Shown here: piece after piece, positions 5,687 to 55,813 of the stretch
Layout: each line of letters begins with the position of its first letter
Position numbering within the stretch: the stretch's first letter is position 1
Assembly (NCBI RefSeq): GCF_018977255.1
Contig: NW_024704742.1
Span: 68,698,001-68,762,000 of the forward strand
DNA: 64,000 bases
Direction: 5' to 3'
Source: Callorhinchus milii
Taxonomy: Eukaryota
The notes under the pieces: model-generated
What the model saw: the letters and a program-made list of their open reading frames with translations, nothing else
Told to the model about the DNA's origin: nothing
Databases searched by the model: none
Program-made: the position numbers and the translations under genes

Positions 5687-6580
5687 TATTTGTGGGCGAA
5701 CGCGGCAGCCAATTGCACGCAGCAGTGTCCCACAAACAGTCGTAGAACGGAATTTTACTGCAACATCTTTCATATTAATCCATGTGAACCTACTCTGTAC
5801 TCTTTCTATTAGCTTTGACGTCCTCTCAATAACAGTGTGCCGAGAACTGCATGCGGACCAACAGTGGATTAACCAAAGTCTTGTTTTAGGGTCTCATAAT
5901 TAAGCTTTGCTTGTGAAATTTGCCGTGAATATTAATTAAATTGAAGACATTATTCCACTTAGTATGGGCTTTTGTTTTGGACAGCCAGATGTCTGACACA
6001 TGCAGAAACCCATCCCCATGTTTAACAGTATCCAAATCAAACTGAGAATTCCATGCATCCCACCTACACATGGAAATCCCGGAGATAGATTGTTGGATGG
6101 AATGCGCTCTCTCCCTGGAGGGACACATCCTGCTTACCTAATTCTGGGAAGTATTAGGCGCAGGTTGGCAAGAGCTGACGGATATCTGCCTTCAGTGATG
6201 ATGGGAGGACCTTTACAGTACAGCTTGTGAGCCACTTTGATGTTCTTGAGGTCCAAGTCCAATGCTGCGTACCAGGCTTTCTCAGCACCAGTTGCTTAAT
6301 CCAGGTCCTCATGCGAGAGACCTTGGCAAACAGATGTGCCCGCTGTGAAGAACTGGCATCTATACTAGAAGATCATAGAACATATTATATTCTTTCAAGG
6401 TACAGTTTTCGTCTCCCACTCTGTTCAAATCCAACACTCCAAAGCTCAAGGGAGATGCATCTTAGAAACAAACATAAGATTCATTTAATTCAAATTGTCA
6501 GGATTTAGACATTTTGTTACATTCCTTTAGAGTGCAGAAACATTCTGTTTTTATGTAAATGGAGTGTAATTGGATTTAGT

Positions 6581-6895
6581 GGAGTCCTGTAGTTCAGTGG
6601 TTAGAGCGCTCGCCTCGAAAGCGAGAGACCTGGGTTCGATTACCGGCAGGGCGAAACCTTGGGCAAGTTTCCTTAGTCCACACGCCTGATAATAATCCCT
6701 CAAGAAAATAAATAAATAAAATAATAATTTGGTCACGCAATCCACGACTGTTTGTGGGACACTGCTGTGCGCAATTGGCTGCCGCATTTTGCCCACAAAT
6801 ATACAGTCAATTCACTTCACAGTATATTCTGTGAAGCGCTTTGAGACGTCTACAAGTCGGGAAAAGCGCTATATCAAATACAAGGATTATTATTA
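6581..6895 (+). mobile_element. tRNA-derived SINE, short (internally deleted) form
   Basis: A box TAGTTCAGTGG, B box GGTTCGATTACC, GGGCAAGTTTCC block, L2-like tail and (TTA)n. Confidence 0.9.
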
Positions 6896-8563
6896 TTTAT
6901 TTCTCTTGAACATCTATATGAAAAGAAGAGAACAATAATTATAAAGAAAATTGAGCTCAATTCTTGATTAAAAAGAAGGAAGGTTCGAACTGTGTCTCGG
7001 GAAAACTTAGGAGCATGTTTAATTTTGATCCAAACGCTCCCAGCATCATTACCGAGTTCAATAACTGAAGCAAAGCTTCCCTGTTTTTCTCCATAATAAT
7101 CCTTATATTTGATATAATGCCTTGTCATGTTGTTGAAATGTCTCAAATGTCTCAAAGCGCTTCACAGAATATACTGTAAAGTGAATTAAAATATAATTGA
7201 AATACAGAATATACTGTAAAGTGAAGTGAAACGTGGCAGCCAATTGTGCATAGCAGTGTCCCACAAACAGTTGTGAGTTGAGTGACCAATTTTTTTCGAG
7301 ATTATTAACCCCGCAAAGCGATATCCCAAATTACGAACGGTCGGGTTCCTATTTACAGCTTGCCTTCAAAGCCCGCCACTGCCTTGCTCCTTCCTACCTC
7401 TGTGACCTACTAATGCCATATCAATCTGTCCACTTCCTCCGCTCAGCAGGCCTGCTCCACATTCCCTGCCCGGCTTGCCCCACCATCGTTGGTTGCCCCT
7501 TCAACCTCTCTGCCCTCATCCTTTGGAACTCCATCCCAAAGTCTCTTTGCCGCGCTGTTGGCCACCCACCTACCCCTACCCTCCCTGCCCTCCACCACTC
7601 CTGATCCCAACACCCTGCTCAGGTCCAAATCCCTAACTGAACAGCGCCTTGGGACGTCCACCTGACGTGAAAGTTGTTACACAAATGTAATTTTTTGTTG
7701 TTGTTGTTGTAGGTAAACAGCTGTGAGGCGTAAGGAAGCTTGCCTAACATTTTTCCCTGCCCAATAATCGAACCTGGATCCTCCAGGACGACATAATGTT
7801 ATGAATGCAAGTTGTTGCTACACATTAACAGATCTAAACAAAATTAAACATCACAATTTTAGCGACACATTGTTTGAGGTACAGGAGTTGGAGAGAATAT
7901 CCTCATCTTCAGCTGATAAAGTAGCAATTTTCGTAGGAAGAGCAACTGCTTGGGAACTTGGATTAAATCTGAAGCATTTTACAACTCAACAATGGTAAAA
8001 ATATCCCTAAAGTGTAAGCCATGAGCCAAAGCAGATCATAAAGGCAAGGGAGGGGAAGGGTAGGTTAGATTAGACATGAACACAACATAATCATTAAGAA
8101 AGCATATTATCTAAATCCTGTTTAGCTAAGATAAAAGAAGATGTTGATCACATCAGCTCAGCAAGTAATCCGAGGTTCGACCACATATTCACTGGGTACC
8201 GTATTACTATTTTACATCAGTGTTGCATACATTTTTGCAGTTTTTTTTCACTGAAATATAAATGACTCAACATGAGAAACCGTTGAACTTAGACCATGGA
8301 ATCCATCCAGTTCAACAAAAGGTAACTTCCCCCCGATTACAATTTTTAAATAAATAATCCTTGCATTTGGTACAGGGCCTTTCACATCAGGAGGGCATCT
8401 CAAAGCGCTTCATAAGATTTACTGTAAAATGTAGTGACTATGTATTTGTAGACAAAGCATCAACCCATGTTACACACATCAATGGCCGGTGTGAAACCTT
8501 AGGCAAGGTTCCTTACTCCAGACGCCTATGTTCACCTCGCACTAAGTAGGAACCTGACTGCTG

Positions 8564-11569: not shown

Positions 11570-11830
11570 GTCACGATAGGATAAATCTCATAGTCAGATA
11601 GGCTTTTGAACACTCGCCGAACTCAGTGCATGTTAAAGGCCCATTCGGTTAAAGGTACCAAAAGTTGAACCTGTTGATCCGTGTCCACATTGTAGAGTCC
11701 CATAGGGTAGTGGTTAGAGCACTCGTCTCACAAGCAAGAGGACCCAGGTTCAATTTCATGATGGGGTAAAACATTAGGCAAGTTTCCTTACTCCACACAC
11801 CTCTGTTTATTTAGCAGTAAGTAGGAACCC
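11570..11830 (+). repeat. 261-bp segment identical to 36062-36322
   Basis: Base-by-base comparison showed no mismatch and a constant offset of 24492 bp. Confidence 0.95.
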
Positions 11831-13634
11831 GGTTGTTAGTCAATTGATGCATCGCTTCCAGGGGTAATTATCCCTCCAGAAAAGAAATGCAGTCACTCTA
11901 TCCACGAATTTTTGTAGGACACTGCTGTGTGCAATTGGCTGCCACATTTCGCCCACAAACACTGTCAATCCATTTTATAATATATATTTTGAATCGCTTT
12001 GAGACATCTTAATGATGTGATAAGATGCCATCTCAAAATGCAAGGATTTATTATTGAGCCTAACCCTTTGGGAGAGCAGTGGAGAAAATTGGAAGGTAGG
12101 ATAGAGACAATAATAAATTCTTAACAAGGTGTTTATATAACAAAACTTTCTTGGAGTCTTAACACTGAATCTTTGAGAGTGTATTATAGGTAACAAGAGC
12201 CTTACAAGTAGGATAAATTCTCAAAGCGCTTTACAACTATGGATGGGGTTGGATATTGAGCGAGGGTGGAGTGGTAGGAAGGAGAAAGTCACCGTCAGTG
12301 CAGTCAGAGATAGGTTTATGGGCAGGACTTAAAGATAGATAAAGAGGAAGTGAGAAGGAGAGGTAAGGGAGGGAGTTGCAGTGGTTAGGGCATAGCAGTT
12401 GAAAACTCAGGGTGAATTACTCTTATAGAAATGGGAGATTAACTCTCCCTTGAAATGATACGTGCCATGAAATAACTGCGGAAAATTGCCTTCCCAGTTA
12501 TGCCTTGATTTAAGATTTATCCAAAATTCCACACAAACTTAAAGTTTGAAATGATGACCTTGAAAATAAGAGCATGGGGATTTGGGGTCTCTGATTTCTT
12601 CTGTCCCATTAATAAGGTTACAGATCTTGATGGATGTGAAGCTGATTCATTATATTCTCTAATCTCGTAATTTGAATTTGCTTTGAAAATTGGGTTTCTT
12701 CCAGGATGTCTGTCTCCACTGAATTTTTCCCTCTGTATCCCCTTAATAACCCGAGAAATCACTGGTGAATCAAGACATATTCCATTTTATAGGCTTTACT
12801 TAGAAAGTAGAATAAATCAAACTCACAGGAGGCCCAGAGAGTGAAGGAATAATAATAATAATGATCCTTGCATTTGATATAGTGCTTTATCACGTTGAGA
12901 TGCCTTAAAGCTCTTCACAGAATATTGTATATTGTATAGCCAATTATGCACAGCAGTGTCCGACAAACAGTTGTGGATTGAGTGACCAAGTTATTATTTT
13001 TTTGAGGGAGTATTACCCCCGGAAGTGATCCGCCAATCGACAAACTACCAGGTTCCTACTTATTGCTAGGTAAACTGAGGCATGTGGAGTAAGGAAACTT
13101 GCCGAAGGTTTCGCCCTGCTTGGGAAGGATGGTCTCCATGAAGCTGACATTCCATTACCAAGCATGTCACGTTGAAGCTGAACTGGCTCCAAGGTCACAT
13201 GCCTGGCAATGAAATATCAGAACCAAGTCAACCCTCCGGTCTTCTCTCGTCCGGCTCCTGAGCCAGACATGTCCGCAGTACTCCAGGGTACTGCTGATGA
13301 CAGAGCAGCCAGCCTGGCTCATCTGCAGGACTTGGAGGGACAGAGGGAGCAGCATTCTTCCTACTCAGCTCCTATAAGCATTACATACCAAAGCCCTCCC
13401 TGCTTTTACCCACACATCTGATGACCTGAATCAAATTCTGAAAAAAAACATATGAGTTTATGACCTAATGCAGTGTAGCCACAAGACCTCTTTATCCATC
13501 TCAATCTAGATTCACTATATCATTTTTGACATGCACAATTTAATCTCCTCCAACTTCCTTGCTCACATTTGTTGCAATCATGCTTTAGTGTCAGAAGATA
13601 ATACATAGGTTGATAGAATGTAGAACCATAGAAA

Positions 13635-14005
13635 GCCACGACATAGTAGGGCCCATTATATTCGTGCTGGTATTTGCTCCTCCAATGAAACCATATGTGG
13701 AGTCCTGCAGTGTATTGGTTAGAGCACTCGACTTGCAAGCGAGAGGACCCGGGTTTGATTCCAGGGCAGGGGAAAACCTCAGTCAAGTTTCTTTACTCCA
13801 CATGCCTCTATTTACCTAGCAGTAAGTAGGAACACGGTTGTTAGTCGATTGGCAGATCGCATTCTGGGGATAATAATCCCTTNAAAAAAGTAATAAGAAG
13901 AATTTGGTCACTCAATGCAAGACTGTTTGTGGGAAACTTCTATGCGCAATTGGCTCCTGCGTTTCACCCACAAAATATACAACCAATTCACTTTACTGTA
14001 TATTC
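13635..14005 (+). mobile_element. tRNA-derived SINE, long form with the central TTTACCTAGCAGTAAGTAGGAAC block
   Basis: Head GTGGAGTCCTG...TTAGAGCACTCG...GCAAGCGAGAGGACCCGGGTTTGATTCC; similar copies at 11692-12055, 25090-25457, 40205-40570, 45275-45640, 48480-48850. Confidence 0.85.
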
Positions 14006-22293: not shown

Positions 22294-22407
22294 ACTCCTG
22301 AAGAGCTGGAGGACGACTCTGATTTTGAGCAGGAAGACTACGATGTGCGCAGCCGAACGAGTGTCCAGACTGAAGACGACCAGCTGATTGCAGGACAAAG
22401 TGCTCGG
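22294..22407 (+). CDS. CTNNA2: CTNNA2 internal exon, 114 bp, acidic phospho-linker: TPEELEDDSDFEQEDYDVRSRTSVQTEDDQLIAGQSAR
   Basis: Acceptor TTTTGCAG at 22286-22293, donor GTACGT at 22408; phase 0/0. ELEDDSDFEQEDY matches alpha-N-catenin as I recall it (alpha-E has ELDDSDFETEDF). Confidence 0.96.
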
Positions 22408-28031: not shown

Positions 28032-28213
28032 GCCATCATGGCCCAGCTGCCACAGGAGGAGAAAGCGAAGATCGCAGAGCAGGTGGAGAGCTTCCACCAA
28101 GAGAAGAACAAGCTGGACGCCGAGGTAGCAAAGTGGGACGACAGCGGCAATGATATAATTGTCCTGGCCAAGCAGATGTGCATGATCATGATGGAAATGA
28201 CTGATTTCACCAG
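28032..28213 (+). CDS. CTNNA2: CTNNA2 internal exon, 182 bp, start of actin-binding domain: AIMAQLPQEEKAKIAEQVESFHQEKNKLDAEVAKWDDSGNDIIVLAKQMCMIMMEMTDFT(R)
   Basis: CAG acceptor at 28029-28031, donor GTAAGG at 28214; conserved KWDDSGNDIIVLAKQMCMIMMEMTDFTR motif; ends with a split codon AG. Confidence 0.97.
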
Positions 28214-29295: not shown

Positions 29296-30910
29296 GGAAG
29301 TGCAGTTGATGTAGCTTGTATGGATTTTCAAAAGGCGTTTGATAAAGTGCCACATAAGAGACTTGTAAGCAAAATAGAAGCCCACGTTAATAATAATCCT
29401 TGCATTTGATATAGCGCTTTTCACGTCGGGAGGACGTCCCAAAGCGCTTCACAGAACACACTGTAAAGTGAATTGACTGTATATTTGTGGGCGAACGCGG
29501 CAGCCAATTGCGCACAGCAATGTCCCACAAACAGTCGTAGATTGAAAATGACCAATTTATTATTGTTTTTGGTTTTGGAGGGATTATTATTAGGCTCTGT
29601 GTGGAGTAAGGAAACTTGCCCAAGGTTTCGCCCTGACCTGCCTGGAATTGAACTCAGGTCTCTCGCTTGCAAAGCGAGTGCTCTAACCACTGAGCCACAG
29701 GACTCCACAGATATTATTATCTCCACACGTTATTAAAAAGACCGTGGCAGCATGGATAACAACAACAACTTGCATTTATATAGCGCCCTCCACGTTGGGC
29801 GGCGTCTCAAAGCACTTAACAATGGTGGAGCCCAAGGCCGAGCCGGGGGATACAGAACTGGCTGGGAGACAGAAAGCAGAGAGTGATGGTGAACAGTTGT
29901 TTTTCTGACTGGAGGGAAGTGTGCAGTGGTGACCCCCAGGGATCAGTATTGGGACCACTGCTGTTTTCGATCTATATAAACGACCTAGACTTGGGTATAG
30001 GGAGTACAGCTTCCAAGTTTGCAGATGATACTAAGCTAGGAAAAAATAATAAACAGTGAGGAGGATAGTAGCAAACTGCAAATGGACATAGACAGACTGG
30101 TAAGATGGGCAGACACGTGGCAGATGAAGTTTAATGCTGAGAAATGTGAAGTGATGGTATTTTGGGAGGAAGAATGAGGAGAGGCAATATAAGCTGATGG
30201 TACAATCTTAAAGGGGGTGAAGGAACAGAGAGACCTGGGGGTTCATATCAGTAAATCTTTGAAGGTGGCAGGACAGGGAGATAAAGCTGTTAAAAAAGCA
30301 TATGGGATACTTGGCTTTATAAATAGGGGCAGAGAATACAAAAGTCAGGAACCTTTATAAAACACTGGTTGGGCCTCAGCGAGAGTATGTGTTCAGTTCT
30401 GGGCCCCACACTTTAGGAGGAATGTCAAGGCATTGGAGAGGGTGCAAAGGAGATTTACCAGGATGGTACCAGGAATGAGGGATTTCAGTTATCAGGAGAG
30501 GTTAGAGAAGTTAGGATTATTCTCCTTGGAGCAGAGAAGGTTAAGAGGAGACTTAATAGAAGTTTTCAAATTATGAGGGGATTCGATAGGGTGAACAAGG
30601 AGAAACTATTTCCACTGGCGGGTGGGTCAGTAACCCGAGGACACTGATTTAAAATAGTTGTTAAAAGAAACAGAGGGGAGGCGCGGAGAAATGTTTTCAC
30701 ACAGCGAGTTGTTTGGATCTGGAATGTATTGCCTGAAAGGGTGGTGGAAACCTATTTGATAACAACTTTTAAGAGAGAAGTAGATAATTATTTGGGGAGG
30801 ACAAGTTTGCAGGGCTATGGGAGAGAGTGGGGGAGTGGGATTGATTTGAATAGCTCTTTTCAAAGACACAATGGGCTGAATGGCCTCCTTCTGTGCTGTA
30901 TAATTCTATG
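29296..30910 (+). mobile_element. 5'-truncated CR1 LINE (decayed RT), interrupted by a SINE (29387-29708) and a ~90-bp L2 tail (29758-29850)
   Basis: [37 protein letters not shown] motifs; ATTCTATG terminus; GGATA duplication flanks the L2 tail. Confidence 0.92.
29387..29708 (-). mobile_element. Young short-form tRNA(Ala)-like SINE
   Basis: Near-identical reverse complement of 55493-55813; CACGTTA on both sides is a likely target-site duplication. Confidence 0.92.
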
Positions 30911-30919
30911 ATGATCTAT

Positions 30920-31050
30920 GAAGTTGACCTGTTTGAGGAGGAAGTTGGCCTGTCCACACAGATAGTTGGCCTCTCTGCAGGGGAAGCTGTCTGTCCATGT
31001 AGGAAGCGTATTTGTCTGCACAGGAAGTTGGTTTGTCTGCACCTGAAGCT
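30920..31050. repeat. Degenerate ~21-bp tandem repeat (AGGAAGTTGGCCTGTCTGCAC-like); more units at 29250-29300, inverted units at 27570-27603
   Basis: About six diverged units visible by eye. Confidence 0.75.
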
Positions 31051-33276: not shown

Positions 33277-33607
33277 ATAATAATATATAATAATAATAAT
33301 AATCCTTGCATTTGATATAGCGCTTTTCACGTTGGGAGGACGTCCCAAAGCGCTTCACAGAATATACTGTAAAGTGAATTGACTGTATATTTGTGGGCGA
33401 ACACGACAGCCAATTGCGCACAGCAATGTCCCACAAACAGTCATGGATTGAAAGTGACCAATTTATTATTGTTTTTTTTTTTTGGAGGGATTATTATTAG
33501 GTGTGTGGAGTAAGGAAACTTGCCCAAGGTTTCGCCCTGCCTGAAATTGAACTCAGGTCTCTCGCTTGCAAAGCGAGTGCTCTAACCACTGAGCTACAGG
33601 ACTCCAC
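33277..33607 (-). mobile_element. Young short-form tRNA(Ala)-like SINE
   Basis: Highly similar to 29387-29708 and 55493-55813. Confidence 0.92.
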
Positions 33608-36061
33608 TTGCACATAATGCACAGAGTTATAAATAAGCCATGCGTCTTTAGGTTCCTTACTCACCCCCACCCTCACCCAGCTCCACTGGCTCCCCATCCT
33701 CCAGAGGCTAGAGTTCAAAATCCTCGTTCTCGCCTTCAAGGCTCTCCACGGGCTTGCGCCTCCCTACCTCTACGACCTGCTGACCACATATCAACCTGTT
33801 CGCTCTCTCCACTCAGCAGGCTGTGACCTGCTCCACGTCCCCCGCCCAGCCCACCCCACCATCGGCGGTCAGACCTTCAACCTTTCTGCCCCCACCCTAA
33901 CACCATCCCACATTCCGTTGCCTCGCTCCCTCCCTTGCTTTCTTCAAGGCACGTCTCAAAATCCTCCCCTTGACCAAAACTTTGGCCACCCTCCTACCTT
34001 CCTTACCCTCCACCCTCCCCAATCCCAACCCCCAGCTCAGGTCAAAGTCTCTGACTGTCCAGGGCCTCGGGACGTCCTCCTGACATGAAAGGCACAAAAC
34101 AAATGTGATTTTGTATTGTATTGTATTGTATTACTTGGGCAGGTGGAGTGGAACTTGAAATCAGCCCTTCCTGGTTTAAATTGGATTTGAAATACAATAC
34201 TGGAATTCAGACTGCCTGCATTTAACAAGCTGGACTGAGGAAAATCATTCAGCTTGCACCACACTGCCAGACAAGCCCACAGCTACAGAATCAAAGAGTT
34301 ACCAGTAAAGGTTTCTGGGACTCATTTACGACCCTGCCTGATGCTGTACTGGAAAGTCAGTCAGGTGTGTATTTTGGGAGGATAAAAATCTCATGGGCCC
34401 AAGAGTCTACTTCACCTACACCTCCCTCGTGATCCTATGTTTTAAGAGGTATAAAACAGTGAGTGTGTTAAGTGATTCTGCCTATCCACATGAATGTTTA
34501 AAGATTCCATGACACTATTTGAAAAAGAGAAGGATGTTTTCCCTTGTGTCTTAGCCAGTAATCTTCCAGATAAATTGTTCATTCCTTCCATGGCTGTTTG
34601 TGGACCATTGCTGTGTACAAATTAGCTGCCACGTTTGCCTACAAAATGCAGTCGCTATACTTTACAGTAAATGTGTAGTGTAGAGTTCTGTAGCATATGT
34701 AGACTCTTGTAGCATATTTGTTAGAGCAGTCACCTCACAAGCAAGAGATCCCAGGTTTGATTCCCATGCAGGGTGAAACCTTCAACAAACAAACAAAATT
34801 ACATTTGTATAGCGCCTTTCACGTCGGGAGAACATTCCAAGGTCCTGGAAAATTAGTGTTTCGGACCCAAGCTGAGGGTCAGGATTGGGGAGGATGGAAG
34901 GCACGGGGGAGAAGGTGGATGATCGAAGGCATGGTCGAAGAGGGGGGTCATGAGATGGGTCTTGAAGAAAGCAAGGGAGGGGACCCGTGCGATGAGAAGC
35001 CAGTGGAGTTGGACAAGAATGGGGGTGATGGGGTCGAGGAGCCTGGTGCGGGAGAGGACATGGGCTGCAGAGTTCTGGATGATCTGCAACCGATGGAGGG
35101 AGGAGTTGGGGATGCCAACAAGCAGGGAGTTTGCATAGTCGAGCCTGGACGTTATGAATGCAATAAATTTATATAGCGCCCCTCACGGAGAGTAGCGCTT
35201 GACAGTGGTGGAACACAACACTCCTCTGTTTACCTAACAGTAAATAGGAATCCGGTTGTTAGTCGATTGGTGGATCACTTTTCCGGGAGTACCAATCCCT
35301 CAAAAACAATCATAGAATCTTACAGCACAGAAGGAGGCCATTCGGACCATTGTGCCGGCTCTTTGAAAATGCTATCCAACTAGTCCCAGTCCTAAATAAT
35401 TAATCCATGACTGTTTTTGGGACCTGATGTACGTATTCGGCTTGAACTCAGCAAGCCAGCCCAGCTGAGCTGCCACAGTCTCTCAGTATTGCTGATAAAG
35501 CATTAATAAAACACTGATGGATGTGCTTGTTATTTACTGAGGTCTTTGTTAGTTTAATACATTTTGATTTATTGCTTTGCAAACTTTTAGAGAAGGAAAA
35601 TCAGGAGCTTGAGGAGGGAGAAAGGAGTGGCTAATGTCATTATGGCTGCAAATGGTTTCATGCTTTCATTAATAACTGCCAACTTGAAACCCATCTTCAT
35701 AGAGTTGAGTTTTATTGCTTACGCTACTAGAATTATTCACTATTTGTGGAACGTTGCTGCCAGGAAAGTGACTTCCCGGTCCCCCAACAAAATAACAGTC
35801 ACTACACTTGTAGTGCTTCACAGGATTTACAGTAAAGCGTAGTGACTGGATTTTGTAAGTGAATGTGGCAGCCAATTTGCACAGCAGTGACTCACAAACA
35901 TCCATGAAATGAATGAACAATTTTAATTTGGGGATTGCTGGGCGGGATACAGGGAGAAACTCCCTTCTCTAAGCATGGGGTTAATGGAATAGGATAGTAG
36001 TTGATGCAGTCGCCTCGCAAGTGAGAGGACCTGTTTTTGATTCCCAGGAAGGGTGAAACCT

Positions 36062-36322
36062 GTCACGATAGGATAAATCTCATAGTCAGATAGGCTTTTG
36101 AACACTCGCCGAACTCAGTGCATGTTAAAGGCCCATTCGGTTAAAGGTACCAAAAGTTGAACCTGTTGATCCGTGTCCACATTGTAGAGTCCCATAGGGT
36201 AGTGGTTAGAGCACTCGTCTCACAAGCAAGAGGACCCAGGTTCAATTTCATGATGGGGTAAAACATTAGGCAAGTTTCCTTACTCCACACACCTCTGTTT
36301 ATTTAGCAGTAAGTAGGAACCC
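36062..36322 (+). repeat. Identical copy of 11570-11830 embedded in a SINE (about 35985-36540)
   Basis: Host SINE head ends ...GGGTGAAACCT at 36061; the duplicate follows and brings in a second SINE head. Confidence 0.95.
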
Positions 36323-39069
36323 AGTTGTTTGTCGATTGGCGGATCGCTTTGTGGGGATAATAATCCCTCAAACAAAAATTGGTTCCTGTTTGTCAGATAT
36401 TGCTGCGGGCAATTGACTGCCACATTTCTTTGAACAAAATACAGAGTCAATCCACTTTACAATGTATTCTGTGAAGCGCTTTGAGACGTCTCAACGATGT
36501 GATGAGGTACTATATCAAATGCAAGGATTATTTATTATTTTGGGTGGGGTAGTGGGCTTGTTTGAACATCTTGCTCTGATATCTGATGCAGGCTTGATGA
36601 GCTGAAAGGCATCCTTCTGTTTTGTACGTTTCTATGATCCTAAACTTTAGAGAGTAAAAGTTTGCTTCAGACTCCATACTTGCTATATAGATATTCTGTT
36701 TCTCCCACATGAACTCTTAATGACCTTCATTTGTCGAAATACTGCACCAAAACAGCAGAGCATGCATGATAAAGTGAGGCATTGAGGGGGAAGTCTGCAA
36801 ACCTCATGTCTATTCATGTCTTGTAGATGAGAACCCATCAGGAAAAGAATAGCAGCATGTGTATGCCAATTAATTTCTGGTTTACGGCTAGTTTTATGGT
36901 TCAGTACAATATCCGAGATCAAGTGTTTTCGCTGAAGGCTTTGCTAATTTATTGGCAAGTTAGAAGACAATAAGATAGAGGCAGCTGTGTATTAAAACCT
37001 TTCTGCATTAGTGGGAGTTATAAAAATACTTGCATTTGATATAGCTCCTCTGGTTGTGGGTTCAAGCCCCACAGCGGGACTTTAAATTCACAGCCAAGAT
37101 TGACGCACCAGTGCATTGCGTCCTTCGGATGAGACTTTAAACCGAGGCTCCATCAGGAAGATGTTACTAATCGCATGACACTATTTGAAAAGAGAAGGGC
37201 GTTTCTCCCAGTGTCAATCCAACATGTAAAATTGACCATTCACATCAAGGCTATTGATGGCGCATTACTGCACAAAATTGACATGATAAGGTGCTATATC
37301 AAATGCAAAGATTATTATTGTTACGTCATCGAGGCATTCCAAAAAACTTCACAGGAATTACTGTCAAGTGCAGTTACTATGCATTTGCAGGCAAACAAAG
37401 CAGCTATTTTGCATGTAGCCAATGTCCCAAAGCAACCATGAAGTGAATGATCAGTTTTATCTGCCGGATTGTTGGCCAGGGAGAGAAATTCCCTTCTCTT
37501 CTCAGTGTTTGTGGTCAGCCCAGCCCTTATCAAAAAATAGCTAATTATAGACAGGATTCAATAACACTTTAATACTAACATAATAATCACATGAGAGAAT
37601 CATATAGAATTGTTCCAATGTATAATTAAAGTGGAAGTAGAACACTCAGCTAAATAGGGCAGTGGGGAAAGAGTCCATTGTGGCTTTCAAAAAGGAAATA
37701 ATAATAATCTTTGCATTTGATATAGCGCCTTATCACATTGTTGAAACATCTCAACATACTTCACAGAGTATATTGTAAAATGAATTTGACTGGATTTTGT
37801 GGGCAAAACGTAGCAACCAATTGCCCCCAAACAGTCTTGGATTGAGCGAACAATTAAACTTAACAATTTTTGGAGGGATTGTTACATCCAGAAAGTGATC
37901 AGTATACAGGTATTTGAAAGAAAGGGCTTGAAGGAGTATGGTAATAAAATGTGGCAATGGGATTGAATTGATCTCCTTCCTCTGGGAGCCAGTGCAAACT
38001 CTCTGGACTGAATGGCCTCCTTCTGCGCTGTAGATTTCTATGCTTCTATGCTCTAATCCAAATGGAGGGTTGTGAGAGGCACTGCTCAGCCTCTCACACC
38101 CCTCCATTTTGTTGCCACATAGCGATCTAGATTCCTCATGTATTTGCTGACACAATCACAATAAGAAGGGTTCATACAAGTTACACATGCGATAGCAGTT
38201 ATAAGATTTGATGTCTCATTTATTGCCATTCAAAGATTGATTTGATTTGAAACTCCCTTGCAAAATTCTGATTTGGCCTTCATAGAGTAAGCTCATACAT
38301 GCCAGCATTGTAAAGGTTAATGCTAGATTTGCAAAAACCTGCATAAATGAACAATAAACTGATAGCATTATGATTATCAACGTGTTCTTCGCAGTCACTG
38401 CAATGTTCCAACTAGCTTAAAAATGTACTCTGTCTCGGTGCTGTATTATGAAAGGCCCATTGTGACAGGCAGCCTACATTAGCATTAACAATCCCCATAA
38501 AAATTCGATGAATGGGCCAAGTTGTCATAAGTTGCAGTGAAATAATAGGAAACGAAAATAGCTCACGTTGCATTTGGCACTCATTCATCCTGTTTACAGT
38601 CTGGATATTATAAGTAAAGTAATGAGTTTCCTCCCACTCTTTCCTGCCAACCCCCACCCCCCCCCCCCGCCCCAAACTCTTGCGTGATGGGCAGCTCACT
38701 GAGACAATGTCAATCCATTGAAAATCTTCACTAAATTGTCAGCGCAGCAGAATAGTAGCAGAACAAGATAACATTCATGAACTTGTCCCGGTTGTTAAAT
38801 TTCTTCCTATTGCTTGCTAACAAAGTGTTCCAGAAACTGTGACAGATAACTCCTGACTTTTAACTCTCCCCAGTTAGTGACAGTCAGGTTTTTGTTCATT
38901 TTTTAACCTGATGATTAAGTTTGTAGTCGACAGGGTTTGTGTGTGAACAAAAAAATGACTTTCCACGTAACAAATCATTGTGTAAATATCTTGTATTTGA
39001 TATACAGTTCAGCCCCTTTATAACATATTTCTTTACACTGTTGACAGGGGCAACTAAATTGGCATATTT

Positions 39070-39244: not shown

Positions 39245-41423
39245 TAACCCCTTTTTTTTGGACTGGAACCATCAGGCTCACATGGAGTGATTTGGTTGGC
39301 TGCATACATGCACAACAACACCAACTATCATGTCCTTATTATAGCATGGGTTGGGATTTTATTTATGCCAATCACAGTGTTATAACGAGGCTTACTCCAG
39401 CACTGGAATGTTTCAAAGTGTTTCAAGAGAGTTTTCTGTGAAGTTCAGTGACTGTGTATGTGTAGGTAAACCCAGCAGCTAATTTGTAGCTGAATACGGC
39501 AGCCAATTTCCACACAGCAATGTCCCACAAGCAGCCAAGAAGTGAATAATCTTTTTTTTCTCTCTGGAGAAGCTGGCCGGGAGAAGCTCCCTTCTCTTTT
39601 AATAACAAGGGATCTTTAACGTTCACTTGAACAGCCAGATGGAACTTTGGTTTAACCAGAGGACAACACCTCTGACGATGCATCTAGAATTACATATATC
39701 TCTACCATCGGTGGCCATGCTTTCAACCACTACTCCACAGAACGCTGGAAAACCCTTTCTCTATCCCTATAAATGTTGTTCTTGTTGTTCCCCCTGGACT
39801 GGACTGTCAGCCTGTACTGTGAGCTCAGAGCCTCATGGTGGTTACAGGAACCTACGCCTTCTGACTCAGAAGCAGGAATGTTACCAAGTGAGCATAGATG
39901 AAGAAAATGCTTTATGCTTTTTGTGGGTCAAATTCTAAAGAGGCAGAAATAATGACTTTACAACCTTGGGGATGAAAAAAAAATTCAGAGTCAGTTTTGA
40001 GTCAATCAAAAGCCCTCCACCATCATCAGTAATGGGACTACATCAACAGAAAGTCAATGTACTTAGTATTGAGAAATCTAGTGGTTAATACATAACATGA
40101 CAAAAGTCATTGGTCAGTGTATTTTGAGAATACAGGAGCAGGAGTCTCATCAGCTATTAAATCCATTACCACTCTCTTGGATTCCATTTTCCTGCATTTA
40201 TAATGATAATAATAATAATCCTTGCATTTGATATAGCACCTTATCACTTCATTGAGATGTTTCAAAGCACTTCACAGAATGTACTGTAAAGTGGATTGAC
40301 TGTATATTTTGTGGACTAATTGCACACTGCAGTGTCTTACAAACAGTCGAGAATTGAGTGACCAAATTAGTATTTTTTTAAAGGATTATTACCCCCAGAA
40401 AATGATCTGCCAATGGACTAATAACCAGGTACTAATTACCTATTTACTGCTAGGTAAACAGAGGTTTGTGGAATAAGGAAACTTACCTAAGGTTTTTCTC
40501 TGGTTGGGAATTGAACTCGGGTCTCTCACTTGCGAGGCGAGTCCTCTAACCAATATGCTACTGGACTCCCATTTGTTTTTAAAAATGCTGCTCAATAATC
40601 ACAAAGGAGGTTTGGATATAGCTAATACAGTTTTGGCCCATCTGATCTCATGCTTACACAATACCCAACCTACTGTCCTCACGTTATAGCTTCACGCTGT
40701 TTGTTAAATGAGTCCAGTGTCCTGGCCTCAGCTACCCTCCTCGTAATCCTGTTCAAGCCATTGATATGTGTGCAATGTAGTTCCTGGTGTCTGACTAAAG
40801 CTTGCCCTTCACATCCCTGAACTTACCATAGAACCATAAAAATTGACAGCACAGGAAAAGGCCGTTCAGCCTATTGTGACTTGTGCCCTCTCGCCTTGCT
40901 CCTCTTAATACGTCTAGAACTACATAAAGTGGTACAACACAGAAACAGGCCATTCAGCTAAACTAGTCCCTACCGGTGTTTATACTTCACATGAGCTTCC
41001 ACTCCTCCTAATTGCTTCTCCAAGATGCTAACCCATGTGAAGGGTGCCATATAAATGCAAGTTGTCTTTGTTTTCTCTTTTCCCTGAATAGCCATCAGCC
41101 TGGCACAGTTGGTAGCACTCTCACCTCTGAGTCAGGATGTTGTGGATTCAAGCCCCACATCAGGACTTTTACCTCACAGTTCAGGCTGACATCCAGTGCA
41201 GTGCTGGGGTTGTACTGATTTGTTCGGGGGTGCTGTCCTTCAGATGAAATATTAAACTGAGGACCAGTCTTTATGTTTTGGTGGTTAAAGATCCCATTAC
41301 ACTATTTGAAAATAGAAATGAGTTTCTCCTGGTGTCCTGAGCAGCAATTCTCCAGATAAATTGGTCACTCACTGGCTGTTTGTGGGACATTGCTATACCT
41401 TCAGGTAAGGATATCAAGGGATA

Positions 41424-43470
41424 TCATAGAATCATAGAATTATATAGCACAGAAAGAAGCCATGCGGCCCATCGTGTCTGTGTCTGCTCTTTGAAAAGAG
41501 CTATTCAAATCAATCCCACTCCCCCACTCTCTCCCATAGCCCTGCAAACTTGTCCTCCCCCAAATAATGATCTACTTCTCTCTTAAAAGTTGTTATTGAA
41601 TCAGCTTCCACCACCCTTTCAGGCAATACATCTGAACAACTTGCTGTGTGAAAAGATTTCACCTCACCTCCCCTCTGTTTCTTTTAACAACTATTTTAAA
41701 TCAGTGTCCTCGGGTTACTGACCCACCCGCCAGTGGAAATGGTTTCTCCTTGTTCACCCTATCGAATCCCCTCATAATTTTGAAAACTTCTATTAAGTCT
41801 CCTCTTAACCTTCTCTGCTCCAAGGAGAATAATCCCAGCTTTTCTAACCTATCCTGATAACTGAAGTCCCACATTCCTGGTAAATCTCCTTTGCACCCTC
41901 TCCAATACCCTGACATCCTTCCTAAAGTGTGGGGCCCATAACTGAACACATTCTCTCGCTGAGGTCTAACCAGTGTTTTATAAAGGTTCATCATAACTTC
42001 CTGACTTTTGTATTCTAGGCCCCTAGTTTGAAAGCCTAGTATACCACATACTTTTTTAACAGCTTTATCTACTTGTCCTGCCACCTTCAAAGATTTGCTG
42101 ATATGAACCCCCAGGTCTCTCTGTTCCTTCACCCCCTTTAAGATTGTACCATCAGCTTATATTGCCTCTCCTCATTCTTCCTCCCAAAATACCATCACTT
42201 CACATTTCTCCACATTAAACTTCATCTGCCACGTGTCTGCCCATTTTACCAGTCTGTCTATGTCCATTTGCAGTCTGCTACTATCCTCCTCACTGTTTAT
42301 TATTTTTTCCTAGCTTAGTATCATCTGCAAACTTGGAAATTGTACTCCCTATACCCAAGTCTAGGTCGTTTATATAGATCGAAAACAGCAGTGGTCCCAA
42401 TACTGATCCCTGGGGGACACCACTGCACACTTCCCTCCAGTCAGAAAAACAACCATTCACCTGCTCTCTCTGCTTTCTGTGTCCCAGCCAGTTCTGTATT
42501 CATGCTGCCACTGCCCTTTAATACCATGGGCTTCTATTTTGCTTACAAGTCTCTTATTTGGCACTTTATCAAATGTCTTTTAAAAATCCATATATTCTAC
42601 ATCAGCTACACCACCTTCATTCACCCTCTCCGTTACTTCATCAAAAAGCTTTATCAGGTTTTTTAGACATGATTTGCCTTTAACAAATCTATGTTGGCTG
42701 TCCTTTATTAACCAATATATTTCTAAGTGAAAATTTATTTTGACCCACATTATAATCTCTAGAAGTTTTCCCACTACCGACGTTAGGCTGACTGGCCTGT
42801 AGTTCCTGGGTTTATCCTTCTGCCCCTTTTTGTATAGGTGAGTAACATTTGCAACCCTCCTGGCACCACCCCAGTGTGCAAGGAGGATTGAAAGATTGTG
42901 GCTAGAGCCTCCATTATTTCCACCCTTACTTGCCTTCAGTAACCTAGGATGCATCCTGTCCAGACCGGGTGACTTATCTGCCTTGAACACCAACAACCGT
43001 TTTAGTACCTCCTCTCGATTTATTCTTATCCAATTTCTCTACCCTCTCCTCCGATACTGTGGCATTGGCAGCATCCTCTTCTTTTGTGAAGACAGATGCA
43101 AAGTACTCATTCAGTACGTCAGCCTCCACAAGAAGATTTCCTCTTTGGTCCCTAATTGGCCCACCCTAGCTTTGACTAAACTTTTATTCTTTATATGCTT
43201 ATGAAATACCTTAGGGTTCCCTTTTATGTTACCTGCTAATCTTTTCTCATACAGTCTCTTTATTTCTCTTATTTCCTTTTTCAGTTCTCCTCTGTACTTT
43301 CTATAATCTATTTGATTACCTTCTGTATTTTGGACTTGACATTTATCATAAGCCTCCTTTTTCTGTTTTATTTTAATCCCAATTTCCTAATTCATCCAGG
43401 GAAGTTTGGATGCCCTACCTTTTCGCTTTGTGGGAATGTATTTGTTCTGTCCCCGAACTATCTCCTCCTT
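41424..43470 (-). mobile_element. 5'-truncated CR1 LINE (~2 kb, decayed RT)
   Basis: DKSPGLDRMHPRLLK, NYRPVSLTSVVGKLLE, LFSLEQRRLRGDLIEVFKIM; terminal (CATAGAAT)2. Confidence 0.93.
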
Positions 43471-44277: not shown

Positions 44278-46077
44278 CGCTCGAGGGGCTGAATGATCTA
44301 CTCCTGTTCCTATGTTCTTATGACCAAATTGGTTGCTGTTTCTGCCTACAAAATACACAGTGACTGCACTTTGCAGTAAATCCTATGAAGCTCTCCGAGA
44401 TGTTCTCCCGACGTGAAAGGCGCTGTGTCAAATCCGCGGATTATTTTCATGTTACAGTATTTCAGATATCTGAAAATATTGAACCAGCCTAGAACCAGTG
44501 CATTGATTGGCACGATCACTAATCCAAAGAAATCCCCCAAACCAGACTGTTGCTCTTTCTTTCTCCCCACCAAAAAAAAAACAGCTTGGATTTGCTACTA
44601 CAGAGTGCAGCTGTTCGCTGGCTGCCTCGCATTGTTGTATGGACTACCTAATCCTTGCCTGAGTACAATGTGAGTCAGTGTCAGTCAGTATGGGCAATGA
44701 TGTGCTGTTGAATAAAATTCTACATCTCGACCTGCAGCTCTGAGTCAGAATCCAACTCCTTTGTTAGTCTAGTGCAATCAGTTGTTGAGAATCTTTGCGA
44801 CTGGAAAATTGACCTGGAGCGAAATGAATGAGCACGAAATGACAGAGCATGCTGAGGCTCGGGCTATTTTTCCTGAGCTCATGTCTTTTTACAGCTGGCT
44901 TTTGTAAGATGCCCAACCGGTGAGAAATGTGGTCACAGTATGGAGTTTTATGCTCTGTTGATGAATAAGGGCTGCACTCAGCGCCTGCAATAGAGACTGA
45001 AATTACATCGGTGAATGAACTGCTTGTCAGTGGGGAGCCTCCTGGTCGTGCTTCACTATCGCACTCGTGACCTTTCCATCGCACGCGCTGTGGATTCATA
45101 AAACATCCCACTTACAGCCTTTCTTGTATGTCCTCTTGTACAACAATGACGTGCAGCTCATACCATCAGAATCAATACTATTCAGCATCTTCTATCACAG
45201 TCAGGGAGAAAAACATCAAGTGTCTGCCCATTGCCTCACCATTTATCTTCTGTCCTTTTCTTTAGTGGCTTTTTAATAATAATAATCCTTGCATTTGATA
45301 TAGCACCTTATCACACTGTTGACATGTCTCAGAGTGCTTCACAGAATAAACTGTAAAATGAATGGACTGTATATTTTTGGGGCGAAACATGAAAGCCAGC
45401 TGCACACAACACCATCCCACAAACAGTCATGGATTCAGTGACTAAATTACTATTATTATTTTTTTATAAGCGATTTTTATCCCTGGAATGCAATCCGCCA
45501 ATCGACTAACTACTGGGTTCTTACTAGGTAAACAGAGGCCTGTGGAGTAAGAAAACTAGCCAAAGGTTTCGACCCACTTGGGAATCAAACCTGGGTCCTC
45601 TCACTTGCGAGGCGCATGCTCTGAGCAATACACTACAGGACTTCCTGGTACTCACTATTGCCAGCCAACTTAATGTAGCCGACTGACTGAATGCATTGTA
45701 CCTTGCATGGGAAGCTTTCCCATCTTGCATGGGAAGCTTTACCGAATTCCTGTTTTACTGGATCCCGAGGTTTGATTAGTTGCGATGCTTTTTGTTTGTA
45801 GCGTAGCCCGTACTGGTCTGCTTCCCAGACTGCTGCCCGAGCGATCAATGGCTGCAGATTGTGGAGAAGTGAGGCCTCCATAGTTAGCTGGAATGTGCTA
45901 AGGGCAGCCTGCCTCCTGCACTGTGGGGCAGTTGCTAAGATGAAAGGCAGGTTTGGAGCCAGAGTTGCCATAGGTTCCATCTCAGATAATTTTTAATATC
46001 TCCATTAATATGTTTGGGCACGCCACGCAAGCTAAGTTTGTACATTCTCCACCCAATCTTGTACCTAGCAGGAAGTA

Positions 46078-46258
46078 GGAGTGGGATTGATTTGAATAGC
46101 TCTTTTCAAAGAGCAGACACAGACACGATGGGCCGCATGGCTTCTTTCTGTGCTATATAATTCTATGATATCCCTTGATATCCTTACCAGAAGATATAGC
46201 AATGTCCCACAAACAGCCAGTGAGTGACCAATGTTATCTGGAGAATTGCTGCTCAGGA
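46078..46258 (-). repeat. Inverted copy of 41335-41522 inserted in a SINE fragment
   Basis: Reverse complement differs by 2 substitutions, one 1-bp indel and one 8-bp unit; CAGGAAGTAGGA occurs at both junctions. Confidence 0.92.
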
Positions 46259-47224
46259 AGTAGGAATCTGGTTGTTAGTCAATTGGCGGATCACTTACTG
46301 GGGGTAATAATCCCTTCCAAAAAAAATAATAATTATTTGGTCAATCAATCCATGACTGTTTGTGGGACAGCAATGGACTGCATGTTTTGCCTACAAATTC
46401 ACTTTACAGTGTATCCTGTGAAGGTCTTTGAGGTGTCTAAACAGCATGATAAGATGCTATATCAAATGCAAAGATTATTATTTTTATTATACTTGTCTAA
46501 CCTGTATAATAATGCATGATGTGAATGAAGCATGTGACACGCATGAAGTGTATTAAAAGTGAAATTAAGACCGCGCAGAAATGTGCAAAAATTCTTGCAA
46601 TCGGTCATATTTACAAAGCAGAAAACTAGACTCCAAATTAAGAATTGGTGTAAGGATTACTCACAACTCTGCCAAGCTTAAATTTTGAGACATAATTGTC
46701 TCACGGACTAAGTCTAGGAGGAATTGTTCGCCCAATGATTTGCCTTGCAGGCCTAAGGCTGAGACCACCAATGAAATAATGTTTTACTGTTAAAGCCACA
46801 CACAGTGTAAATCCAGAGCAAGGGAATTGATCCAGTCTCCATTCAAAAGTACAACACCCCGAGGCAGTTCTGTAATTGGGTAAAAATTCCGCCAGGATCT
46901 AGAATTATGCTGTTAACTTTAGCATTTCAGAGCGTGTGGAATTTGACAAATTGTTGGATTCAGTTTTAAGCCTGAAGACCATTCTCTTCGACCGTGCTTA
47001 CGGTCACCTCCCAACTCCCCCGCAAGGAGAAGTGCTCAGCCACTGTCAAGCGCTCTGGGACGCTACCCTGCATGAGGGGCGCTGTACAATTGTAAGTTGT
47101 TCTTGTTCAATTTGAAACCCATTTTGTTTTCTGCCATTCTTAAAAGAAACTACAGAAAAATGCCTTGAAAATGAAAGGCTGTGTTTAAGAATTTGGCAAA
47201 TTTTGGACACTTTGTGTTAGTAGA

Positions 47225-52230: not shown

Positions 52231-54773
52231 AGCTCCTATCATTGATGAGCTGTGACCTAAACAAGCTCATCACACATGTATGGCAGTTTGGGTTAAGGTG
52301 TGTACACAGGGTTTATGGCATGTTAAATGCTTTGTGAGTTGTATCACTGAAATCTACATTCCCTATTGGATCCTTTGCTTGCAAGCACAGCTGTAACGGT
52401 TATAGCTTATGCATTATAAAATGCCGCAAACTTCGCCCCATTATTTCTTGAGTTGTTACTTCTTTAAAGGAGCATCTTAGAAATCTATTTCGAACTTCGG
52501 GAGTGCGGTACCAAGGCTGGCCAGCCGGAGAGAGGCCAACAACATTGTGTATGTGTAAAGGGCCCATTGCCATGGTAACAAGAAACAACAACAAGATTGC
52601 CTCAACTGTCAAAAACGTCACTGGCCACCACTGAAAATGAATATTATAATGCAATTTGCATTCATATGGCGTCTTTCATGTCGGGAAGATGTCTCAAAGT
52701 CCTTAACAATGCTTGGTGGGCGCCCGAGCTGGGGGTGGGAGCTGCCAGAGGTGGAGGGCAAGGGGGGGGGGTTGGAGGAGGGAAGATGACCGAAGGCACA
52801 GTCCAAATGGAAGGCCTTGAGACAGGCCTTGAAGGAGGCAAGAGAGAGGCTGAGGTGGAGGGGCTCTCGGATGGAGTTCCAGAGGGTGCCGACGGCCGAT
52901 AGTGGAGCAGCCAGGGTGGGGGATGTGGAGCAGGCCAGTGCCTGTACAGTGGAGGGAGCGGACAGGTTGGTGAAGTTTTAATAGGACACAGGATCTTACG
53001 GCTTTCAGGACTCTTTTAGGTAAACAGGGAGGGAGAGTGTGTGTATTCCACTCCAGACATGAGGAATTCTCCATGTATGGAGGTAGCATACATATGGAAC
53101 TCAATCTGGTTTGAATACTCGTAAGAATTGTGATGGGTTGCTGTGTGTATCAGACATCCCGCTGACAAAAAAAGGAAAAGTCCCGGAGTTCCAAAATGCA
53201 GCATTGTATCCACATTGGAAAGGAAATCCAGAACAATACTCGCAGATACATCCGATAGAATTGGTCATTCATTTAATGCTGTTTGTGGGCAAATGGGTTG
53301 CCGCATTCTCCTATAAATACAGTCACTACACTTCGCCATAAAATCCTTCAAAGCACTTTAATAATATTAATCCTTGCTTTGATATTGCGCGGTATCACAT
53401 CATCAAGACAACTCAAAAGCGCTTCCCAGATATATTGTAAAGTGAATTGACTGTATTTTGTGGACGCAGATGGCAGACAGTTGCACACAGCAGTGTCCCA
53501 CAGACAGCCATGGAGTGAGTGACCAATTTTATTTTGGGGATTTATTAGCCAGGACACAAGGAGAAACTCCCTTCTCTTTTTGAATAGTGCCATGGGGTCT
53601 TTAACAACCACCTGCAGGTAGACGGGACCTTGGTGTAACATCTCATCCGAAAGACTTCAACTCGACATGCAATACATCCCCAGCACTGCATTGCAGTGTC
53701 AGCTTAGACTATGTGAGTTCAAGTCCCAGCGTGGGATTTGAACCCCCATACTTCTGACTCAGAGACGAGACTGCTATACCAAGTACAAGGCTTATTATAA
53801 TATGAAAGCGGTAAAATTCATTTGCCCTTTTGATGAAACACAGTGTTCAAGTGCGGCCTTTTTGCTGGGATACCTTTGATTCTATAATTCCCACATTGGA
53901 CCAGCTGTGTATGAGGATCAATGGATGACGCTTAAAGACTGGTTAACATCAATAGAAAAAAGAAAGTTAGGCTTGGTTACAAAGCCACCAATTTGCTATT
54001 GCACAGTTGGAGCATGATACAGTTGGCACAACATGAGTGGAAACAGCATATACATTAGATGGCAGGAAGGTGATAATTTTCAGTGCTTACTGATTTTCAC
54101 TCTCCGAATCGTGAGCTGTCTGTGCAGCCACCCAACATCTGAATATGTTAAACAGCAGAGCAAGAAAAGTTAAGCAATGAAATTGCAAACTCGTTCATCG
54201 ATCCCATCTTGGTGGAGTCCTGTACTGTGTTGATTAGAGCACTCGCCTCGCAAGTGAGAGGACCTGGGTTTGATTTTAAACCGAGGTCCAGTCTGCCTCT
54301 TCAGGGGGATGTTAGTGCCTGTGGCACTATAATAATAATAATAATCATTGCATTTGATGTAGCGCCTTATCACGCCTTCTAGACGACTCAAAGCGCTTCA
54401 CAGAATATACTGTAAAGTGAATTGACTATGTTTTGTGAGCGAAACGTGGCAGCCAATTGCTCGCAGCAGTGTCCAACAAACAGTCATGGATTAAGAGACC
54501 ACATTGTTTTTTGAAGGAATTATTACCCCCAGAAAGTGATCCGCCATTCGACTAACAACCAGCTTCCTATTTACTGCTCGGGAATGGAACCCTGGTCTAT
54601 CGCTTGTGAGGCAAGTGTTTTAACGACTAACCTATGGCGAAAAGAAAAGGGAGTTTGATGTGATAAGGCATTACAGCAAATGTAAGGATTATTATTTTGT
54701 GATATTATGAGAACACAACATTTTTTAACAAGGAGATTTATGTGCTTTTATGTGTCATTCTTATATTTTGTAG

Positions 54774-54879
54774 GGGCAAGGGACCACTAAAAAATACATC
54801 CGATGTGATCAATGCAGCCAAGAAGATTGCTGAGGCTGGGTCCAGGATGGATAAGCTGGCTCGAGCTGTTGCTGACCAG
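54774..54879 (+). CDS. CTNNA2: CTNNA2 internal exon, 106 bp, actin-binding domain: (R)GKGPLKNTSDVINAAKKIAEAGSRMDKLARAVADQ
   Basis: Translated by hand (correct frame is absent from the ORF track); acceptor TTTTGTAG at 54766-54773; first G completes the AG|G Arg codon from the previous exon; donor GTGCTG at 54880. Confidence 0.96.
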
Positions 54880-55492
54880 GTGCTGTATTAATGGAGTTAT
54901 TGAAATGCTTTTCACAGGGTATTCAGTGATGATTAATCCAAGTGGCTTAAAGAAACAGGTAATGAGAGAGTTTATGAGTGGAGCATGCGATAAGATGCTT
55001 CCCCCTTGGTTTATAAAGATTTATAAAGAATATGCAGCACGGAAACAGGCAACTCGACCCATTTGGTCCATGCAGGTGTTTATACTCCACCCATCTCTCC
55101 GCCAACTGCTTACCCCCTACTATATCCTTTTCCCTTCTCCCTCATATATGTATCTACCTTCCTCTTAAATGTATCTCATTACCCTCTGTGTGAAGTAGTT
55201 CCTCCTATATTCTCTTTTAGATCCCCTAGTCGCTATCGTATTGCCAACAAGTGGGAACCGCCTATTTATTAATAACCTTAGCGAATTTTGAATAGCTCTA
55301 AGAGATTTAAACGTCTCTCTTAAACGTCAACAATCTTCCAGATAAAGTTGCATATGCACCTTATGGCTGTTTGTGGGACACTGCTGTGTGCAGATTGGCT
55401 GCAGCGTTTGCTACAAATCCTCAGTCACTACGGTTCACTGTAAAATCTTGTGAAGCACTTTGAGATGTCTCAAGACATGATAATGGAGTCTC

Positions 55493-55813
55493 GTGGAGTC
55501 CTGTAGCTCAGTGGTTAGAGCACTCGCTTTGCAAGCGAGAGACCTGAGTTCAATTCCAAGCAGAGGGTGAAACCTTGGGCAAGTTTCCTTACTCCACACG
55601 CCTAATAATAATCCCTCCAAAACCAAAAACAATAATAAATTGGTCATTTTCAATCTACGACTGTTTGTGGGACATTGCTTTGCGCAATTGGCTGCCGCGT
55701 TCGCCCACAAATATACAGTCAATTCACTTTACAGTGTGTTCTGTGAAGCGCTTTGGGACGTCCTCCCGACGTGAAAAGCGCTATATCAAATGCAAGGATT
55801 ATTATTATTATTA
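55493..55813 (+). mobile_element. Young short-form tRNA(Ala)-like SINE nested in the tail of an older SINE
   Basis: A box TAGCTCAGTGG, anticodon arm CTCGC-TTTGCAA-GCGAG, B box GTTCAATTCC, (TTA)n tail; TAATG on both sides. Confidence 0.93.

Follow-up and report, generated by a model that had tools for sequence, protein, structure and literature searches.

One-sided invasion in break repair was reportedly treated by Belmaaza and Chartrand in 1994, and work by Tremblay from 2000 is said to have dealt with break repair from homeologous endogenous LINEs. In the account given in PMC9369344, one-sided invasion leaves one junction made by HR and another made by NHEJ. Rearrangements between dispersed repeats follow related rules: AAMR microhomologies are mostly shorter than 25 bp and the deletions measure less than 57 kb in 75% of cases in the figures quoted from PMC6071635, and TEMR-HR has a median microhomology of 17 bp at about 80% similarity (as reported in PMC9675761). 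A human junction insertion of 861 bp had its template in nearby DNA and involved one Alu/Alu-mediated switch (case described in PMC6902434), and templated junction insertions are attributed to FoSTeS/MMBIR in PMC6902434 and PMC4888836. Alu-flanked insertions are far rarer than deletions, 80 versus 3,260 in the human survey summarized in PMC12350158. For repair templated by RNA, unspliced templates usually leave no scar, according to PMC12065846.

Here we describe a double-headed SINE in Callorhinchus milii that is joined homologously on one side and non-homologously on the other. The analysis covers one 64-kb stretch of DNA, hereafter the window. A sequence-only reading had presented this arrangement as a route by which SINEs move unique intronic DNA; such a route is not new, SINE-seamed templated insertions being already known from human rearrangements.

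Results

Identity and genomic context of the copy

Exact-repeat comparison across the 64-kb window shows that all 261 bases of 36062-36322 are identical to 11570-11830, at an offset of 24,492 bp. The match is maximal, with no extension possible at the left or the right, and it is the longest exact repeat of the window; the runner-up measures 156 bp and lies between young LINE copies. The features of the locus are as follows.

36062..36322, + strand: acceptor, a templated copy of 11570-11830 that matches it over all 261 bp
36062..36181, + strand: 120 bp of single-copy intronic flank within the copy; the X4 contig has C>T at CpG 36110
36182..36322, + strand: donor SINE A head within the copy, spanning consensus 3-143 with 23 differences
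36304..36322, + strand: homologous seam, 19 bp, consensus 125-143; the switch from donor to host falls here if the host had consensus bases
35978..36061, + strand: original head of host SINE B, consensus 7-87, ending at the blunt left junction; T5 run at 36034
36323..36538, + strand: remainder of host SINE B, its body plus tail, consensus 144-379
11570..11830, + strand: donor segment, 120-bp flank plus SINE A head
11690..12056, + strand: complete donor SINE A, undamaged in the assembly
22294..22407, + strand: CTNNA2-like alpha-catenin exon between donor and copy, 114 bp, AG/GT boundaries, alone without a Pfam match
28032..28213, + strand: CTNNA2-like alpha-catenin exon between donor and copy, 182 bp

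The copied segment is a composite of 120 bp of flank and 141 bp of a tRNA-headed SINE, which bears out the make-up that the sequence-only reading had given, along with its claim of an exact copy 24.5 kb and two exons away. At the donor site an older tail ending near 11559 is followed by 10 bp, the 120-bp flank and the full SINE A. Within the window the flank has no other match longer than 22 bp, and it has no match in Rfam. On these results, together with a single contig over 36093-36153 in each conspecific run, we rejected the possibility that the 120 bp are part of a multi-copy element or an RNA gene.

The SINE part was compared with a consensus built from 13 other copies in the window. The longest exact run among the 36 pairs of nine long SINE copies is the 141 bp shared by SINE A and SINE B; the next is 41 bp and the rest are 13-30 bp. 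Sharing through a young subfamily is ruled out by these short runs in other pairs (41 bp at most), by the 23 private differences of the copied head and by the unique flank inside the run. Beyond the copied part, the bodies of SINE A and SINE B are 79.5% identical. The single N of the window, at 13883, falls within the A-rich central part of a SINE copy, distant from both junctions.

The window is part of an alpha-catenin gene on the + strand, in which three ORFs match the Pfam family Vinculin and one exon has catenin alpha-2 as its best solved-structure match. AG/GT exon boundaries were found for an exon ending at 1654 and for 22294-22407, 28032-28213 and 54774-54879, so that donor and copy are two exons apart. 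The donor is indeed a paralogous SINE of the same gene, as had been claimed. The 24.5 kb between donor and copy, with the two exons, are single in the assembly. The copy lies 7.8 kb and 18.5 kb from the closest exon boundaries, and a simple scan detected no new consensus splice site at it. The secondary structure of the copied head is nothing notable (z 0.50). A new Pol III read-through element at the acceptor is unlikely because T runs are present at 36034, in the first head, and at 36096, in the flank. Most likely, 36062-36322 is a neutral intronic scar, with no sign of function.

Anatomy of the two junctions

At the right junction the assembly is continuous across consensus 143|144, i.e. 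the donor head passes in register into the host body, as the sequence-only reading had noted. The last donor-diagnostic bases are 36291, 36302 and 36303 and the first host-diagnostic base is 36323, so the switch would be confined to 19 bp if the host matched the consensus. Positions 36291 and 36303 also differ from most paralogous SINE contigs. Nine other places come within three mismatches of the seam; the donor is the only exact one, a comparison that is partly circular.

At the left junction the host head stops at consensus 87 exactly where the copy begins. Microhomology with the consensus continuation is 0 bp, with the host bases taken from the consensus, in agreement with the earlier description of this end as lacking homology. 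A nearby TTAGG/CAAGT resemblance is not significant as microhomeology, since 9-22% of control positions equal it. By a consensus-based estimate, the host would have lost about 37-56 bp and gained 242-261 bp, a net change of +205. With neither an empty allele nor an orthologous site found among the listed contigs, the estimate of lost bases and the reading of the left join as blunt depend on the SINE consensus, which counts against the proposed event.

No target site duplication was found (the longest word common to the 20-bp flanks is 2 bp), no tail at either end of the copy, and no second SINE body after 36540. Retrotransposition or transduction (class 1 TSIP, TPRT) is ruled out, as the sequence-only reading held, by a copy that has neither a SINE 3' end nor a TSD nor a second SINE body, and by the 14% divergence of the SINE B body.

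Contigs from independent samples

We compared the region 35300-37100 with contigs from X1, X2 and X4, three conspecific samples of one study, and from X14 (organism B). The comparison rests on contigs only, in 32 listed pieces with a further 250,318 outside the listing, which show presence rather than absence and whose depth gives no copy number; a junction counts as bridged when a contig runs 31 letters past it. The fraction of words contained in four same-organism runs, X1, X2 and X4 among them, is 0.69-0.83.

In X4, a 376-bp contig matching 35854-36229 bridges the left junction (208|168) and reaches 48 bp into the second head. It carries one C>T at CpG 36110, possibly an error at a depth of 4.97. 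In X1, a contig over 35857-36091 stops 30 letters inside the copy (205|30), one short of what the rule demands, while another contig, 168 bp long, begins exactly at 36062. This pair has the pattern of a collapsed two-copy repeat, and the start at 36062 implies two different left neighbours. The depth of the 168-bp contig is 13.7 against 10.3-13.5 in the flanks, i.e. not doubled. In X2, a contig of 425 bp fits 36062-36229 and then continues with 257 unlike letters, presumably the donor flank; among the listed pieces 35846-36061 is covered in this run only by a paralogue. The left junction is therefore present in two of the three conspecific runs. Because X1 and X4 come from separate samples and both depart from the window sequence in the flanks, one of them at least does not depend on the assembly. 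Its presence in the X4 and X1 contigs shows the left junction to be genuine and rules out that it is a mis-assembly.

Of the two junctions that the sequence-only reading had proposed to span, 36061/36062 is thus bridged (in X4, one of three conspecific runs), and 36322/36323 is bridged in none of the four runs among the listed contigs. Nor do the listed pieces of the conspecific runs contain an empty, single-headed allele, which the same reading had suggested looking for. Over 36093-36153 each of the three conspecific runs has one contig; the 120 bp are hence not multi-copy at 90% identity or above, whereas a multi-copy flank would have spoken against the earlier account. Among the listed pieces of X4 there is no separate donor piece over this bin; this, the undoubled depth in X1 and the unbridged right seam count against the copy, within the limits that contigs set on depth and absence. 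The X14 contigs do not cover the unique flanks at 90%, which gives no ancestral state and is not evidence of absence. A joint from 36031 to 36266, with a side of 22 letters in all four runs including organism B, was rejected as an empty allele because we read it as paralogous SINE contigs.

Two further differences were noted in the surroundings. The left-flank contig of X2 continues for 71 letters unlike the window past 35845, which reflects either structural variation between alleles or a contig that joins onto a SINE paralogue, and all three conspecific runs have nine extra letters relative to the window within 36513-37067.

Direction and age

The copying probably ran from 11570 to 36062, i.e. 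from SINE A to SINE B, because the copy starts on the left just where the host head is truncated and on the right keeps the register of the host body, for which one event suffices. Divergence itself is uninformative on direction, as both heads are 23.5% from the consensus up to position 87. The opposite direction would make the 36-kb site ancestral, with an old truncated head, the flank and a full SINE, and 11570-11830 the copy. The host head, with 19/81 differences against 30/215 in the host body (Fisher p 0.055), is compatible with this. However, heads are more diverged than bodies across the SINE family (0.82-0.84 versus about 0.9), the two heads here are equally diverged, and the end of the copy would have had to hit the exact truncation point of the old head by chance. 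We regard the reverse direction as extremely unlikely.

The sequence-only reading had called the event recent. The absence of differences over 261 bases does bound the divergence between donor and copy at less than 1.1%, but this is a bound only. The flanks differ between the window and the runs at 3/1320, 0/1214 and 5/1406 positions (0-0.36%), a rate that predicts just 0-0.9 differences per 261 bp; one difference, the CpG C>T, is seen in the X4 contig. With so low an expected count, the event may be as old as the ordinary polymorphism of the species, and it may be fixed.

Proposed DNA-templated copying in cis and its alternatives

We propose, with a probability of about 0.68, that DNA-templated copying, with SINE A in cis as the donor, mended a break in host SINE B. 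A germline break or a collapsed fork would have arisen inside SINE B. The end bearing the B body could then have paired with SINE A, which lies 24.5 kb upstream in cis, by means of some 80% homeology and a perfect stretch of 19 bp. Copying would have proceeded leftward for 242-261 bases, through the head of A and then 120 bp past the SINE, until the extended end left its template and joined the other end bluntly at consensus position 87. A single event of this kind explains the exact 261-bp identity between old SINE copies that are otherwise 79.5% alike, and also the positions of both junctions. SINE A is not the copy closest to the B body (79%, versus 77-85% for seven others), which favours its nearness and the 19-bp match as the likely reasons for its use. 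SINE A is unaltered in the assembly, the contig comparison having spanned the acceptor region only. A replication fork that switched template twice could give the identical product. The one-sided strand-invasion repair put forward by the sequence-only reading thus holds as regards a copy with homology on one side. As regards the pathway, one-sided invasion at a two-ended break and a replicative double template switch have the same product and are indistinguishable from sequence.

The template may instead have been RNA. The right broken end, a minus-strand 3' end, would anneal to SINE A in the unspliced transcript of the gene and be extended by a LINE RT or a translesion polymerase before end joining. 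Donor and acceptor lie within one + strand transcription unit, the window contains LINE RT fragments and young LINE and SINE copies, and the seam is on the right, the side that a sense RNA could prime. RNA-templated break repair has been demonstrated in human cells (PMC12065846), and class 2 TSIPs have been proposed to be RNA-derived (PMC5110952). The repair described in PMC12065846, as far as that account goes, uses a transcript of the same place and not of a paralogous repeat. Here, moreover, the patch is entirely intronic, hence no splice signature is possible, and the donor intron, two exons upstream, would have to survive or stay at the break. The sequence-only reading had taken the preserved orientation as a sign of pre-mRNA, an argument that fails: a sense RNA can give direct copies when primed from the right and inverted ones when primed from the left, and invasion of DNA makes no distinction between orientations. 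Information comes from the seam's side alone, probably by a factor of about 2, since the same polarity is expected half the time with a DNA template. We consider an RNA template, from annealing to end joining, unlikely. In its general form, the idea is that germline repair of intronic SINE breaks in this genome uses the nascent transcript of the gene itself, where a paralogous SINE serves for priming; this is in our view unlikely as well. It would be of interest because repair from unspliced templates is usually scarless (PMC12065846). If it were true, unique intron DNA would be copied from RNA under the guidance of SINE homeology across tens of kilobases, and a normally invisible unspliced-RNA-templated repair would become countable in a vertebrate genome.

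The arrangement might in part be a haplotype mosaic or an assembly product, in which the left junction is real and either the donor flank is missing or polymorphic or 36230-36322 was filled from the wrong SINE. It would account for the acceptor context alone in X4, for X2 showing only a piece that continues unlike the acceptor, for both contexts in X1 without doubled depth, and for the unbridged right seam. De Bruijn contigs can, however, drop a path when the graph is simplified near high-copy sequence, and at the low depth of about 5-13 next to very high-copy sequence either path can be lost. The 48 bp by which the X4 contig enters the second head mean that the double head exists, and the X1 contig starting at 36062 implies two left neighbours; we consider a mosaic or assembly product of this kind improbable. 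Two successive events would predict exactly the same two junctions, namely a tandem duplication of 24.5 kb, bluntly joined at 36061|11570, and a later deletion between SINE A and SINE B that left 261 bp. Both event classes are common (in the surveys of PMC6071635 and PMC9675761), and the duplicated exons, 296 bp in all, would be out of frame, so that reversion would be selected. Yet the deletion must have used the SINE nearest to the junction on each side, and recombination between perfect 24.5-kb copies would probably have reverted cleanly far more often. We therefore hold this sequence of events to be very improbable and favour DNA-templated copying from SINE A.

The SINE family and other local rearrangements

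The SINEs fit the CmiSINEs SINE2-1_CM and SINE2B-1_CM of Callorhinchus milii, as these are described in PMC5499810, in the tRNA-Ala-like heads of young related copies and in very high copy number. The body divergence of 14-16% observed here compares with averages of 12.6 and 17.2% given there for the CmiSINEs (PMC5499810). The family is accordingly a putative CmiSINE. Young, shorter SINE copies at 6578-6901, 29388-29711, 33288-33607 and 55489-55813 are 88-97% alike, have tRNA-like heads by Rfam and ARAGORN, and lack about consensus 116-178 of the older family; tRNA-Ala heads were called on three of four young related copies. Consensus 85-143 of the older family may resemble the CORE domain.

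The intron contains another local templated copy, which also speaks for the proposed event: 46081-46253 (173 bp) is an inverted copy of about 41335-41522, 4.6 kb upstream; the blastn alignment has 189 columns with two mismatches and two gaps. The segment is a composite of a LINE-like 3' end, presumably CR1-like, and its flank. The insertion (46069-46265) sits in another SINE copy at consensus 128-139, the same stretch as the main seam, and shows a 12-bp target duplication with a private base and microhomologies of 3 and 5 bp. With one direct and one inverted case, local templated copying here does not look tied to one orientation.

Other SINE copies are interrupted by LINEs at 7360/7710 (consensus 126), 8554/10724 (142-150) and 34782/35213 (88-103). 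Counted with the two templated events, five SINE interruptions fall within consensus 87-150, an apparent clustering. Just before the exon at 54774, the SINE cluster 54212-54696 consists of a + strand head (consensus 5-68), a - strand body (120-381), a reversed diverged head and a short + strand tail, possibly the result of an inversion between two copies. In addition, 29850-30921 and 41424-42499 form a 1.1-kb inverted CR1-like pair with 90.7% overall identity and exact runs of 113, 76, 74 and 73 bp, which are either young copies or products of partial conversion.

Discussion

A single intronic scar is of little importance alone. The present one is a clean, read-supported example of how old SINEs, only about 80% alike, continue to guide repair and to transport unique DNA in a fish genome rich in SINEs. 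Its shape, a double head with one seam, is countable genome-wide, and the polarity of the seam could separate DNA from RNA templating. A literature search that lacked most subscription journals returned no report of a chimeric SINE copying unique flank in sharks.

Among known systems, one-sided invasion or abortive SDSA with end joining shares with this locus the combination of one homologous and one non-homologous junction, and, in the assembly, the intact donor. The present case differs in having arisen naturally in the germline, in a cartilaginous-fish SINE, with copying that extends 120 bp beyond the repeat and along a putative pathway. The LINE break repair ascribed to Tremblay is alike in having a paralogous repeat as donor.

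Class 2 TSIPs resemble the locus as intronic patches at a break, without TSD or poly(A), with a small target loss and a donor that is intact in the assembly; unlike them, in the description of PMC5110952, our case has a donor in cis and a homologous right junction instead of end joining at both sides. As to the polymorphism by which class 2 TSIPs are recognized, the junction occurs in two of three conspecific runs and the empty allele in none of the listed pieces. With RNA-templated break repair the locus shares the polarity of the priming end, an agreement expected half the time by chance.

The likeness to AAMR and TEMR lies in a directly oriented SINE pair tens of kilobases apart and about 80% alike, and in the in-register chimeric element, an A head on a B body, with 19 bp of microhomology. 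In contrast to those rearrangements, the intervening 24.5 kb are neither deleted, duplicated nor inverted in the assembly, and the blunt junction returns to the original site. The human case assigned to FoSTeS/MMBIR is alike in being a nearby-templated insertion with one Alu/Alu switch. The segment 36062-36322 is a real, well-defined repair scar of a kind already known from studies of DNA repair.
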